Positions 35,699-42,973 of a stretch of DNA of 64,000 nt are shown here, in pieces. Position 1 is the stretch's first letter, and every line of letters begins with the position of its first letter. A program made the position numbers and the translations under genes. The stretch is from Armatimonadota bacterium (lineage in GTDB: Bacteria; Armatimonadota; UBA5829; DTJY01), in contig DATKXU010000060.1 of NCBI GenBank assembly GCA_035528905.1, positions 8,863-72,862 on the forward strand. Direction: 5' to 3'. Under the pieces are notes generated by a model, which was given only the letters and a program-made list of their open reading frames with translations, did not search any database and was not told the origin of the DNA.

Positions 35699-36130
35699 CT
35701 AGGAAGTATCGCTGCATTCTACGTCTTGGCAGACCTCTGCTTCCCAGAATGCTTTATACTCCTTGCGTTTAGTTAGGACAAGGGGCTTTTTCTGTTCGAC
35801 TAGCTCGTCTGGGGTCTTGCCTTCAACATCCAACCGGGTTCGGTTGTGTGCTTCATTACAGAAGCGGCAAGCGGCAACGATGTAGTCGGGGTTGTCTCTT
35901 TGCGGATGGCCTAGCGGAAGCAGGTGATCCCATGAAAGGTAGAGCCAGTTGGGCCATACGGTGCCGTCGAGTCCACAGTATCGGCACCTGAACCCGTCGC
36001 GTTTGAGAATAGTATGTGCGTAGCCGCGCAGTGCGTCTCCGAATTTGGCAGTCGTGGGCTTCATCGCGATTAGTATAGGACTATATGAGTTTGCTGTCAA
36101 TGATAGATATTCGCCTTGACTGCTTGTCAT
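35699..36130 (-). CDS. HNH endonuclease
   Basis: FRCRYCG...WDHLLP...CRFCNEAHN (HNH Cys/His pattern). Confidence 0.72.
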   Translation of the reverse strand: MTSSQGEYLSLTANSYSPILIAMKPTTAKFGDALRGYAHTILKRDGFRCRYCGLDGTVWPNWLYLSWDHLLPLGHPQRDNPDYIVAACRFCNEAHNRTRLDVEGKTPDELVEQKKPLVLTKRKEYKAFWEAEVCQDVECSDTS

Positions 36131-36196
36131 GGATCGGAGTAAGATAGGAGTATTCCCACAGGCAAGACAACCCTCTGAGATGAGGAGAACGTAGGA

Positions 36197-39592: not shown

Positions 39593-42500
39593 GTGCGGCT
39601 GAACGTAGCGAAAGTCCGAGAATACCTGCGCGCGTGCCAGTTCAGGAACCTGTTCATTGAGGAACTGGGATGGAGCCACTGTACACTCTCACCCATAACC
39701 GTTTCCGTGGATGGAGAGGACTACACCCTTAGTGCCATCTCCGAAATGGGCGGTTTGGTCGCCTTGCAGTGCAAACCAGCTTCAAACGGTAGGATCCCCG
39801 AGTATCACATCAGGCGAAAGATAGACCGACTTGTTACCAAGCTGCATTACGAGCACATTATCATCTATTGCGGTGGCAACCAGCAGGTCTGGCAGTGGGT
39901 GAAGAAAGAACCCGGCAGGCCGTCCGCACCCCGTGAGCATCCCTTCCGCTACGACCAGTCGGGTACGCCGCTGATCCAGAAGCTCGATGGGCTTGTCTTC
40001 ACGCTGGAAGAACTCGATGGCGAGGGCAACGTCTCGATCAAGGCTGTCTCCGAGCGGGTTAAGTCCGCCCTTGATATCGATAAGGTCACGAAGCGTTTCT
40101 ACGACCGCTTCAAGGTCGAATTGGAGGTGTTCAAGGGGTTCATCAAGGGTATTTCGAATGCCGCCCACACGGACTGGTATGCCTCCCTGATGCTGAACCG
40201 CCTGATGTTCATCTACTTCGTCCAGAAGAAAGGTTTCCTGGACAACGACAGCAGCTACCTCCGCAACAGGCTTCGAATGGTTCAGGAGAAACGCGGGCAG
40301 AACCGGTTCTACTCCTTCTACCGCAGTTTCCTGAGAGTGCTGTTCCACGAAGGGCTGAATTCCAGAGAGAGAACCCCCGAACTACTCGAGCTACTGGGGA
40401 ACGTGCCTTATCTGAACGGCGGTCTCTTTGAAGAGCACGAGCTCGAGCAGGAAAACCCCGATCTCGACATCCCCGATGAAGCGTTCGAGCGCATGTTCGA
40501 TTTCTTCGACCAGTACGAATGGCATCTCGATATCCGCCCGATGCGAAACGACCGGGAGATCAACCCCGACGTGCTCGGCTACATCTTCGAGAAGTACATA
40601 AACGCAATCCAGCCGGGCGAGCAAAAGGCGAAGGGCGCATACTATACCAAAGAGGATATCACCGGCTATATTTCCCAGAACACGATCATTCCATATCTCT
40701 TCGATGCCGCCAGGCGAAAATGCGCCATTGCGTTTGAGGGAGAGCAGTCCGTATGGAGGCTTCTGCAGGAGAATCCCGATGCTTATATCTACCCGGCGGT
40801 CAAGCTAGGAGTCATAGACAGGCAACGGAACGTCCTGCCCGAATCCATGCTGCCGGATTTCGTCCAGCGTGGGATGCGCGATCCCAAGGCAAGGATGTTC
40901 GACAACCGGTACAACCTTACGGGAGCCGACCTTCGAGATGAGGAGGGAAATAGGCTCACTCTGCCCACCGAGACCTGGCGGGAGTACGTAGAGCGGCGAA
41001 AGCGCTGCCTGGACTTGCGTTCGAAGCTCGGAGCAGGTGAGGTGAAGTCCATTGATGACCTAATCACCTACAATCTGGACATTCGGCAGTTTGCCCAGGA
41101 CGTGATCGAGAATTCAGAGGGGCCGGAACTGCTCCGGGCGTTCTACTCGGCAAGCCAGAGCGTCACTGTGCTCGACCCTACTTGCGGGTCGGGAGCGTTC
41201 CTGTTTGCCGCATTGAACATCCTTGAGCCGCTTTACGAGGGGTGTCTCGAACGGATGCAGGAGTTTGTCAGCGAACTGGACACCTCTCAGGAAAAGCAGG
41301 ACCCCAGGAAGTACTCGGACTTCCGCCGGATACTGGAAGCTGTGGCGCAACATCCAAACCAGCCATATTTCATCTTCAAGTCCATCATCCTGAACAACCT
41401 CTTCGGCGTGGATATCATGCCGGAGGCGGTGGAGATATGCAAGCTCCGCCTGTTTCTGAAACTTGCGGCTCAGGTGGAGCCGGATAGATCGAAGGACAAT
41501 ATGGGGCTTGAGCCGCTGCCCGACATAGACTTCAACATCCGGGCCGGGAATACACTGGTCGGATTTGCCACATATGATGAGGTAAAATCGGCGGTCATGG
41601 GTAGCGACCAGAAGCGCATGGATGTTTTTGATGAGATGTCACCGATTGAAGAAAAGGCCCAGGAGGTGGAGAGGCTATGGCAAAGATTCCGCGAGCAGCA
41701 GGAGATGCTGGACGGCGGGGAGATCACTGCCAGAGACAAGCAGGAGTTGCGAAACGAGCTGGCGCCGCTGGAAGAGGAGCTGAACAGGTATCTCGCAAAG
41801 CAGTACGGCGATGCCGCCAGGGACTACGAAGGTTGGCTTGCATCACACCGGCCGTTCCACTGGTTCATCGAGTTTCATGGCATTATGAGCCGTGGCGGGT
41901 TTGATGTCGTGCTTGGGAACCCGCCCTATGTCGAGTTCAGCAAGGTAGTGGATGATTATAGCGTGAAGGGTTACTCAACGTTGGAATGCGGAAACCTCTA
42001 CGCCTTCGTTGTCGAGCGAATCTGTGGTTTGGTTAGGAAGATACTTGGCAGATCAGGTATGATTATACCCCATTCAGCCATTTGCACTGACAGGATGGCC
42101 CCACTACAGAGGGTATTCCGTGAAGCTGCGGATACGTTATGGGTCTCATCCTATGATATACGTCCAGCTAAGTTGTTTGATGGCGTGGATCAGAGGTTAG
42201 CCATATACATGATCAAGCATGGAAACGGTACGGACGTAACGGTGATTGCTTCTCGATACCATCGCTGGCATGGTGAGTTCCGTCCCTTCATCATGGGATC
42301 GCTCAAGTACGTCGATGTGTCCGATATGGGATTTCCTAACTCTATCCCGAAGGTAGACAGCCTCTTGGAGACCTCACTCTGGACCGACCTTAGCGCATGG
42401 CCTAAATTGGCCATGGAGTTTGTCGGCTACCGAACCCCCAGCGTTGTGTACTACCACAATGCGCCACGTTACTGGAACCGAGCAATGAGCTTTGCCCCCT

Positions 42501-42973
42501 ACTTCTGGAACGAGCGGAATGGCGAACTGATCTCCACTCAGGTCAAGTCAGTTTATCTCCAGAACGGACTTGACAAGGAGGTTGTGGTTGCCTGTCTAAA
42601 CAGTTCCCTGTTCTATTGGTGGTTTATAATACTCTCAGATTGCCGCCATCTCAACCTTTGTGAGATTGAAAGCTTTCCTCTGGGACTTGAAGAAATGTCA
42701 TCAACCACGAAGGACATCCTAGCGACATCGGCTACTGAGCTGATGTTGGATATGAAGAGGCATGCCAAGCGCAAGAAGTGCCAATATAAGTCCACTGGCA
42801 AGGTGGTTTACGACGAGTACTATCCGAAGTACTCCAAGGCACTTATCGACAAGATCGACCGTGCTCTGGCGAAGCACTACGGCTTCACGGACGAGGAGCT
42901 GGACTTCATCATAAACTACGATATCAAGTACCGGATGGGGCTGAGAGGAGAAGATAACGAGCACGAAGAATAG
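39593..42973 (+). CDS. Large N6-adenine DNA methyltransferase (gamma-class, Eco57I/type IIG-like), GTG start coupled to upstream helicase
   Basis: 1126 aa. Motif I LDPTCGSGAFL precedes motif IV VLGNPPYVEF. Stops with TAG. Confidence 0.85.
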   Translation: MRLNVAKVREYLRACQFRNLFIEELGWSHCTLSPITVSVDGEDYTLSAISEMGGLVALQCKPASNGRIPEYHIRRKIDRLVTKLHYEHIIIYCGGNQQVWQWVKKEPGRPSAPREHPFRYDQSGTPLIQKLDGLVFTLEELDGEGNVSIKAVSERVKSALDIDKVTKRFYDRFKVELEVFKGFIKGISNAAHTDWYASLMLNRLMFIYFVQKKGFLDNDSSYLRNRLRMVQEKRGQNRFYSFYRSFLRVLFHEGLNSRERTPELLELLGNVPYLNGGLFEEHELEQENPDLDIPDEAFERMFDFFDQYEWHLDIRPMRNDREINPDVLGYIFEKYINAIQPGEQKAKGAYYTKEDITGYISQNTIIPYLFDAARRKCAIAFEGEQSVWRLLQENPDAYIYPAVKLGVIDRQRNVLPESMLPDFVQRGMRDPKARMFDNRYNLTGADLRDEEGNRLTLPTETWREYVERRKRCLDLRSKLGAGEVKSIDDLITYNLDIRQFAQDVIENSEGPELLRAFYSASQSVTVLDPTCGSGAFLFAALNILEPLYEGCLERMQEFVSELDTSQEKQDPRKYSDFRRILEAVAQHPNQPYFIFKSIILNNLFGVDIMPEAVEICKLRLFLKLAAQVEPDRSKDNMGLEPLPDIDFNIRAGNTLVGFATYDEVKSAVMGSDQKRMDVFDEMSPIEEKAQEVERLWQRFREQQEMLDGGEITARDKQELRNELAPLEEELNRYLAKQYGDAARDYEGWLASHRPFHWFIEFHGIMSRGGFDVVLGNPPYVEFSKVVDDYSVKGYSTLECGNLYAFVVERICGLVRKILGRSGMIIPHSAICTDRMAPLQRVFREAADTLWVSSYDIRPAKLFDGVDQRLAIYMIKHGNGTDVTVIASRYHRWHGEFRPFIMGSLKYVDVSDMGFPNSIPKVDSLLETSLWTDLSAWPKLAMEFVGYRTPSVVYYHNAPRYWNRAMSFAPYFWNERNGELISTQVKSVYLQNGLDKEVVVACLNSSLFYWWFIILSDCRHLNLCEIESFPLGLEEMSSTTKDILATSATELMLDMKRHAKRKKCQYKSTGKVVYDEYYPKYSKALIDKIDRALAKHYGFTDEELDFIINYDIKYRMGLRGEDNEHEE

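Follow-up and report, generated by a model that had tools for sequence, protein, structure and literature searches.

What do two large genes encode that lie back to back in an Armatimonadota genome, the first for a nuclease fused to a helicase and the second for a giant adenine methyltransferase? We studied this locus in a 64,000-nucleotide (nt) stretch of GenBank assembly GCA_035528905.1 (contig DATKXU010000060.1, positions 8,863 to 72,862 of the forward strand), referred to here at its full length as the window. The first gene (36197..39589, + strand, 1130 amino acids, aa) encodes a phospholipase D (PLD)-SNF2 protein, and the second (39593..42973, + strand, 1126 aa, GTG start) encodes a gamma-class N6-adenine methyltransferase. 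An earlier sequence-only reading of the window had described these two genes, together with a divergent HNH nuclease gene, as a minimal module resembling Class 1 DISARM. The three open reading frames (ORFs) lie where it had placed them, and its domain calls (HNH, PLD nuclease-SNF2 and adenine methyltransferase) were correct; it had overlooked a third conserved gene, for a DprA-like protein, and a variable cargo slot, as well as the filing of the methyltransferase as Type IIG by REBASE and PADLOC and the published genetics of a homologue, Slr6050. Our comparisons indicate that the pair, or the trio with the DprA-like gene, is a widespread and uncharacterised restriction-modification-like operon, of which the window carries an intact copy. 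In the literature that we searched (with subscription-only papers and REBASE outside it), there are passing mentions only, and nowhere is the pair or trio treated as a system; two genomes in which a Type II restriction-modification (R-M) gene adjoins a PLD+SNF coding sequence (CDS) are tabulated in Milman et al., 2023 (PMC9881135).

To sample relatives, we scanned a single genome from each species; of the loci found, at least 590 in number, we kept the best 80, which span more than 20 phyla. A methyltransferase homologue lies directly 3' of the PLD-SNF2 gene and on the same strand in 75 of the 80 loci (one of the 75 is a fragment only), so the pair is a real unit, and the co-occurrence that the sequence-only reading had proposed to look for is there. 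Of the remaining five loci, three lie on contigs that end within 0.9 kilobases (kb); in another the gene is on the opposite strand, and the last lacks it within 2.4 kb. Clustering of the ORFs from the 80 neighbourhoods left three families present in more than 10 loci: the helicase-nuclease, the methyltransferase and a protein of ∼215 aa. As no other large neighbouring gene is conserved, the nuclease-motor protein is the only candidate effector. We also searched for DUF1998, DrmA and DrmB: no drmA- or drmB-like gene occurs among the window ORFs between 13 and 58 kb that reach 150 aa, or in the 80 related neighbourhoods. The proposal of a distinct restriction-like unit without DrmA and DrmB was thus upheld, with pairing in 75 of 80 loci and no other large gene conserved beside the pair.

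In the window, the two large genes are separated by a 3-nt spacer (TAG at 39587-39589, then CGG, then GTG at 39593), and GGAGGGAGG is found at 39574-39582, 10 nt ahead of the GTG. Translational coupling had been proposed with a spacing of 4 nt; the coupling holds, and the spacing that we measured is 3 nt. The homologues start at the same residue as the window methyltransferase, so the GTG start is correct. Each of the two large proteins can be aligned over its whole length with thousands of homologues; these are therefore real genes and not chance ORFs.

The PLD-SNF2 protein is the candidate restriction subunit, judging from Pfam, PADLOC and alignment motifs. Pfam places PLDc_2/RE_NgoFVII at aa 109-195, SNF2-rel_dom at aa 258-325 and Helicase_C at aa 715-835. 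The N-terminal PLD-fold domain carries a single HKD motif (H139-x-K141...D149...G159SSN162), and the SNF2 part shows motifs I (GLGKT, 283-287), II (DESH, 352-355), III (TATP, 383-386) and VI (QRAGRVDRIGQ, 826-836). In a 32-sequence alignment of the family, with a mean column identity of 79%, the HKD and SNF2 motifs are invariant, and all of them are present in the window copy. More than 8000 relatives (counted as clusters at 90% identity), ∼1128 aa long and 61-82% identical, occur in many bacterial phyla and in archaea, and the window protein itself is on record from an Armatimonadota metagenome-assembled genome. We rejected a phage-borne system because phage genomes contained only distant helicases. 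The C-terminal 246 aa (aa 885-1130, window 38849-39589) are strongly conserved and include an invariant GGxLGRPSGAR motif; this region had no match in Pfam or PDB searches. Among PADLOC models, the best match was C3a139 'HKD+Snf2' (169 bits), which comes from a listing of genes adjoining type III CRISPR loci (Shah 2018). Weaker matches were DrmD (120 bits) and HmaA (68 bits, to the generic helicase C-lobe only).

The methyltransferase would be the modification and target-recognition subunit. An Eco57I domain was identified by Pfam at aa 601-837 (75 bits), and the catalytic motifs stand in gamma-class order, motif I (LDPTCGSGAFLF, aa 527-538) before motif IV (NPPY, aa 776-779); both are invariant in the family alignment and present in the window copy. 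The REBASE-derived PADLOC model REase_MTase_IIG (PDLC03628) covers the protein over its full length with 1062 bits. NCBIfam models of BREX PglX gave 31-64 bits against cutoffs of 400-900, and the family profile, when searched against PDB sequences, produced only weak matches to PglX/BrxX and MmeI, confined to the methyltransferase and helical parts. Judged by its sequence, the protein belongs to the Eco57I/MmeI/PglX supergroup.

The two subunits are conserved to different degrees. The mean column identity of the methyltransferase family is 57%, against the 79% of the helicase, and the conservation profile is most variable at aa 401-450, 676-750, 876-950 and 1026-1050. The latter two stretches fall in the C-terminal region, where a target recognition domain (TRD) is expected, and are likely to determine specificity. 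A variable methyltransferase, its C-terminal region included, beside a uniform helicase is the pattern of a specificity subunit with a constant effector. The N-terminal ∼500 aa of the methyltransferase are conserved, and aa 1-135 (39593-39990) strongly so. In the alignment, no D...(D/E)xK pattern is conserved in the N-terminal 150 aa, and a 'PD' at positions 69-70 is not conserved. A permissive Pfam scan of 21 methyltransferase N-termini found no HSDR_N or other nuclease family; a weak Tudor_RapA match in one of the 21 (E=0.002) is a lead only. An AlphaFold 2 (AF2) model of aa 1-520, with a pLDDT score (predicted value of the local distance difference test) of 82, had no PDB match better than E=0.15 in Foldseek. 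The N-terminus yielded no conserved triad, no nuclease family and no PDB fold, negative evidence that makes a nuclease within the methyltransferase itself appear unlikely.

Insertions of 1.2-5.5 kb break up the methyltransferase frame of several relatives, and other relatives have extra methyltransferase fragments or an inverted copy; the helicase looks intact in these loci (L027, L040, L043, L052 and L055 for the methyltransferase gene, and L037 and L080). Mobile-element insertions, introns or phase-variation cassettes could account for these split or extra genes; for similar genes adjoining PLD+SNF CDSs, programmed inversions have been reported (Milman et al., 2023). The window copy has no spare TRD cassettes.

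Published genetics are available for one homologue. Plasmid pSYSX of Synechocystis PCC 6803 has the same pair, a helicase-related protein (43696-47151) followed by Slr6050 (47827-51129). The pSYSX methyltransferase gene encodes 1100 aa, the length reported for Slr6050, and its product is 46% identical to the window protein over the full length. In the work of Hagemann et al. (2018; PMC6105098), GAm6AGGC is the tentative site of Slr6050 (M.Ssp6803IV). These authors could not fully segregate the slr6050 deletion and concluded that the gene is essential; they mentioned a weak HSDR_N similarity of Slr6050 and no helicase. The GAAGGC site is asymmetric, with an adenine to methylate on one strand only. 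Sites of this kind are also found in Type III, ISP, IIG and BREX systems. A methyltransferase that cannot be deleted is a classic sign of an active cognate restriction function, and the behaviour of slr6050 fits an active restriction partner. If the pair works as one system, this would explain why M.Ssp6803IV is undeletable, and it predicts that the methyltransferase becomes dispensable once the upstream helicase-nuclease gene has been removed.

The terminal gene of the operon (45449..46084, + strand) encodes a single-domain protein of 211 aa with a DprA (Rossmann/SLOG) fold. Pfam DNA_processg_A (PF02481) matches it with 34.3 bits, above the cutoff of 29.6, and its profile matches 3uqz (E=1.4e-4). 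The AF2 model (pLDDT 93) retrieved DprA (3uqz/4ljk, E ∼1e-12, template modelling score ∼0.7) and ShosA (8zva, E 4e-10) in Foldseek, and the PADLOC models of PsyrA and ShosA match weakly. The TIGR00732 dprA model gave 33 bits against a cutoff of 191, short of the score for an equivalog of DprA. The protein thus shares the DprA Rossmann fold with DprA itself and with ShosA and PsyrA, the DprA-like antitoxins of ShosTA and PsyrTA. It differs from ShosA and PsyrA in its single domain and in its divergent motifs (CSxKCPG and GFHSPxExEC), and from ShosTA and PsyrTA in that no phosphoribosyltransferase or RecQ-like toxin partner is present. DprA itself carries flanking domains, which the 211-aa protein lacks.

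The DprA-like gene was found in 26 of the 35 loci with a complete methyltransferase and at least 5 kb of downstream sequence, always on the same strand. It directly follows the methyltransferase in some loci and lies up to 4.5 kb further on in others; a single locus has it just upstream of the helicase. We also ran the reverse test with the DprA-like protein as query against metagenome contigs: ∼24 of 33 contigs with at least 3 kb of upstream sequence have the methyltransferase upstream, and the helicase is found upstream as well where the contig reaches. Where the locus is compact, only the three letters GAG separate the methyltransferase stop from the ATG of the DprA-like gene, a 3-nt spacing at which the two are translationally coupled. 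A conserved 85-nt spacer between these genes, which we had considered, was rejected as an artefact of the tblastn alignment start. The pairwise identities of the DprA-like protein correlate with those of the helicase (Mantel r=0.77, p=0.001), which shows the two to be co-inherited, and those of the helicase with those of the methyltransferase (r=0.38). The DprA-like gene is missing from 34 of 34 plasmid-borne copies and from 9 of the 35 close loci and is therefore not needed for the core function; it is an accessory of one large clade, outside the minimal core.

We favour, with a probability of roughly two in three, the reading that the operon encodes an ATP-dependent restriction-modification system like those of Type III or Type ISP, built from different parts. 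The 1126-aa Mod-like subunit would use its variable C-terminal region to recognise a short asymmetric site and would methylate one adenine (N6-methyladenine, m6A) to mark self DNA. The 1130-aa Res-like subunit would use its SNF2 motor to translocate on double-stranded DNA with ATP. PLD nucleases form one active site from two HKD motifs, as established for Nuc and BfiI. With a single HKD motif, the PLD domain should need a second copy to complete the active site, which favours cutting when two complexes meet. Cleavage would then take place when two motor-nuclease molecules come together, for example after loading at two unmethylated sites, and such two-site cutting would keep hemimethylated daughter DNA safe, as in Type III. 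The docking surfaces between the subunits are likely to be the N-terminal ∼500 aa of the methyltransferase and the C-terminal ∼250 aa of the helicase, both orphan regions. The DprA-like protein might bind single-stranded DNA and limit or repair self-damage as ShosA does, or else modulate the nuclease; ShosA binds DNA and counteracts a toxin (PMC11961720). Our data show the gene content, the intact motifs, the conserved linkage and order, the co-inheritance and the DprA fold, and the literature adds the failed deletion of a homologous methyltransferase; the restriction activity, the subunit complex, the cleavage by dimer formation or collision and the role of the DprA-like protein are inferred.

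The likeness to Type III (EcoP15I, Mod + Res) and Type ISP (LlaGI/LlaBIII) enzymes is a working analogy drawn from what is established for these classes, and not a sequence family. In each case, a gamma-class m6A methyltransferase with a TRD is paired with a superfamily 2 (SF2) motor-nuclease; one-strand methylation of an asymmetric site is probable (the tentative GAAGGC of the Synechocystis homologue), and the ATP-dependent design suits two-site communication. The window system differs in that its motor is of the SNF2 and not of the HsdR/Res type, its nuclease is an N-terminal single-HKD PLD domain and not PD-(D/E)xK or Mrr, its methyltransferase is Eco57I/PglX-like and 1100 aa long with an unassigned N-terminus of 500 aa, and its genes run in the order res-like then mod-like, with the DprA-like gene in addition. 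For the combination of PLD nuclease and ATP-driven SF2 motor, a parallel exists in CglI and NgoAVII, which have a PLD-nuclease R subunit and a separate helicase-like subunit, and the PLD domain of the window protein matches Pfam RE_NgoFVII. The PLD nuclease of these enzymes depends on the SF2 motor for long-range communication (PMC5861437).

Several points weigh against this Type III/ISP-like reading. The evidence against an N-terminal nuclease in the methyltransferase is negative evidence, and in REBASE and PADLOC the methyltransferase family stands as Type IIG, a class of enzymes with a nuclease of their own. The methyltransferase is also distantly related to PglX of BREX, which does not act by simple cleavage. 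An interrupted methyltransferase beside an intact-looking helicase would be unexpected if the helicase-nuclease kills unmethylated cells. The specificity of Slr6050 was assigned by elimination only, and its authors did not consider the helicase. As for the third gene, its absence from all plasmid-borne copies and from about a quarter of the close loci counts here as well, and the Mantel correlation arises also from plain co-inheritance and is no proof of physical contact.

Of the other explanations, the one that survives best is that the methyltransferase is a self-contained Type IIG enzyme and that PLD-SNF2 is a separate, travelling defence gene, for example a modification-dependent Type IV enzyme like SauUSI. 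Like the window protein, the Type IIG enzymes Eco57I and MmeI are large single-chain methyltransferases with a TRD from the same supergroup, and the full-length match to PDLC03628, the distant similarity to MmeI and the weak HSDR_N similarity mentioned for Slr6050 all speak for this explanation. The Type IIG endonuclease domain is usually an N-terminal PD-(D/E)xK domain in the same chain. The window protein has no recognisable nuclease there, by triad, Pfam family or fold, and has a helicase-nuclease gene directly upstream. SauUSI itself combines PLD, helicase and reader (cited in PMC12839542). Yet the near-obligate linkage, the fixed order and the 3-nt coupling are at odds with a separate gene, and the host DNA would be a likely target of any Type IV enzyme that is coupled to a methyltransferase. 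We consider this explanation unlikely.

Alternatively, the pair could resemble BREX or serve an epigenetic role, with PglX-like marking and an SNF2 protein that blocks or remodels without cutting, or with phase-variable gene regulation. The distant PglX/BrxX matches are in keeping with this, as are the extra or inverted methyltransferase fragments in relatives and the programmed inversions in similar genes (PMC9881135); BrxHII and the Hma helicases are SNF2 proteins too (PMC12839542). However, HKD residues that stay invariant from phylum to phylum point to a working nuclease, the window copy lacks spare TRD cassettes, and there is no PglZ, BrxC or DUF499, so we regard this alternative as quite improbable. 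The PglZ phosphatase and the BrxC ATPase of BREX had no matches in the window scans, and neither is conserved in the related neighbourhoods.

The same effector architecture has been described for the Type-2 BREX-related (BR)/Hma systems, in which an N-terminal HKD nuclease-Swi2/Snf2 fusion likewise adjoins an N6-methyltransferase (Rakesh & Krishnan 2026, PMC12839542). These systems are defined by a DUF499 ATPase and have DUF3780 in 98% of cases and a COG1743-type methyltransferase (PMC12839542). The window lacks all three, and no conserved extra gene takes their place in the 80 loci. We rejected membership in DISARM, BREX and Hma/BR, since their defining genes are missing from the window and from the 80 related neighbourhoods.

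A minimal Class 1 DISARM, with PLD-SNF2 as a fusion of DrmD and DrmC, the methyltransferase as DrmMI and a DISARM mechanism, is highly improbable: the pair shares the SNF2 helicase, PLD nuclease and N6-adenine methyltransferase superfamilies with that system (DrmA, DrmB, DrmC, DrmD and DrmMI) and matches PADLOC DrmD (120 bits) and DrmMI (71 bits) and NCBIfam DISARM_DrmD (133 bits), but it has no DrmA/DrmB (DUF1998) core, no separate DrmC gene encodes the PLD domain, which forms the N-terminal part of the helicase polypeptide, the 133.5 bits of DISARM_DrmD lie far under the 610-bit cutoff, and C3a139 and the Type IIG model fit better. The looseness of the DrmD and DrmMI matches already points to a placement of the two proteins outside those clades. 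The likeness to DISARM that the sequence-only reading had seen therefore goes no further than domain superfamilies.

If the pair is indeed an ATP-dependent restriction system of the Type III/ISP kind, an SNF2 motor joined to a PLD nuclease would be an added way of building such enzymes. With the helicase-nuclease labelled no more than 'helicase-related protein' and the methyltransferase filed as an independent Type IIG enzyme, defence censuses probably misread these loci. The operon would also link a DprA-fold protein to restriction.

The stretch from the methyltransferase to the DprA-like gene is a variable slot, which holds toxin-antitoxin and other defence cargo. Among 67 loci with both the methyltransferase end and the DprA-like gene, the two are adjacent in ∼20; the others have inserts that measure 0.3-4.5 kb and are mostly same-strand. 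Pfam assigned PIN (6), nucleotidyltransferase/MNT (6) and Schlafen AlbA_2 (3) domains among 71 slot proteins, along with AbiEii-type and OLD-type ATPases, DarT, YhcG/DUF1016 nuclease, HEPN, RhuM and others; recurrent slot genes of 1009 aa and 210 aa had no Pfam family. This recurrent slot within the operon could be mined for new defence genes, and in our reading the operon junctions are where toxin-antitoxin and abortive-infection genes accumulate.

At the window locus, the slot holds three genes, all on the + strand. The first encodes an M78/IrrE-type metallopeptidase (43010..44146, 378 aa; Peptidase_M78, 60 bits; capP/RmrA-like in PADLOC), which resembles repressor and antitoxin proteins. 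The second encodes a DUF4411 protein (44143..44643, 166 aa; Pfam DUF4411, 193 bits) and overlaps the first by 4 nt, so the pair looks to be of the toxin-antitoxin type. The third is a 212-aa ORF (44763..45401) with no Pfam, NCBIfam or PADLOC match; apart from the two metagenomic relatives that are closest (L081 and L082), no locus has it beside the DprA-like gene. We rejected all three as core components because homologues occur in 0 of the 80 loci, and reclassified them as slot cargo. A more ambitious proposal is that the trio is a distinct and widespread three-protein restriction class, mislabelled by current tools as 'Type IIG plus a helicase-related protein', in which the half-site HKD domain cuts only where two motors meet, the DprA-like protein is a single-stranded DNA safeguard or sensor, and the operon junctions, as a dedicated landing place for toxin-antitoxin and abortive-infection cargo, turn the operon into a two-layer defence; we hold this to be possible but doubtful.

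Other cargo recurs in relatives. A pair of genes for an AAA_15/AAA_21 (OLD/AbiEii-like) ATPase and a DUF4276 protein directly follows the methyltransferase in five loci (L005, L006, L016, L032 and L162); in L162, Anabaena cylindrica plasmid pANACY.05, this pair (7503-9301) has a 4-nt overlap with the methyltransferase stop. Within one sub-clade, the two genes may amount to semi-regular fourth and fifth components. A fusion of MTaX1 ('methylase-associated X1') with an HNH_2 nuclease follows the methyltransferase in three loci (L026 at 15836-16846, L054 and L064), which shows that HNH nucleases are sometimes recruited as cargo; this fusion is unrelated to the HNH gene of the window. Small genes also lie between the helicase and the methyltransferase in some loci, for example VapBC in Synechocystis.

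The HNH endonuclease gene of the window (ORF 35699-36130, - strand) is a real gene and is divergent from the PLD-SNF2 gene. Its HNH domain scores 17.4 bits in Pfam, under the cutoff of 21.4, and a CxxC...H...N...CxxC..H pattern is visible in the translation. A near-consensus promoter-like site, TTGACA-17-TATACT, at 36100-36072 makes the ATG at 36064 the probable start, which gives a likely gene of 121 aa (35699..36064). The sequence-only reading had counted this gene as part of the module; with homologues in 0 of the 80 loci, we rejected it as a component. The intergenic region between the HNH and PLD-SNF2 genes is 132 nt long. A second promoter-like site, TTGACT-18-TAAGAT (36116..36145, + strand), lies upstream of the PLD-SNF2 gene and scored 9/12 in a consensus scan. 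Promoter-like sites in this region are not above the shuffled expectation, and the 36116-36145 site is weak evidence.

The operon lies within an integrative defence island of ∼38 kb (∼16.7-54.8 kb) at a tRNA-Met gene (54818-54894), a location that counts in favour of a restriction system. At the right end of the island, an intact large serine recombinase gene (53161-54861) ends in the tRNA 3' end. The 14-nt tRNA-end repeat AGTGGGAGCGGGGG recurs at 16705-16718, at the 3' end of a truncated paralogous recombinase (15880-16869, 53% identity), which suggests tandem integration next to the remnant of an older element. The left part of the island encodes DUF4062-STAND(NACHT-like)-TPR proteins (17135-20842, 27252-30746 and 31592-35122, with a truncated fourth at 35225-35542), an AAA+/RyR protein (21240-24059), two proteins that carry a TIR domain (24414-26003 and 26067-27143) and a TrkA_N protein (30769-31536); no PADLOC system model matched these STAND, AAA+/RyR, TIR and TrkA_N proteins of 17135-35542 above noise. 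The GC content falls from ∼0.66 to 0.53 at ∼35480-35700, where the truncated fourth DUF4062/STAND gene ends. This drop suggests that the HNH gene, the restriction module and the downstream genes were inserted separately into a pre-existing array of STAND genes.

Downstream of the DprA-like gene, three ORFs (46125-46727, 47116-47757 and 48949-50310) had no family match. The same region encodes an Mrr_N winged-helix protein without a nuclease domain (47845-48432) and a primase/helicase-like protein with DUF3854 and AAA_25 (50700-52487), which probably belongs to the mobile element. On pSYSX, a cluster for DUF6527, a ThiF-family E1, an E2/UBC protein and multiubiquitin lies just downstream of the pair on the opposite strand (15924-18545 of locus L161) and is followed by a helix-turn-helix and ImmA/IrrE pair. 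With this ubiquitin-like conjugation cluster and ImmA/IrrE beside the pair, the plasmid region also appears to be a defence island.

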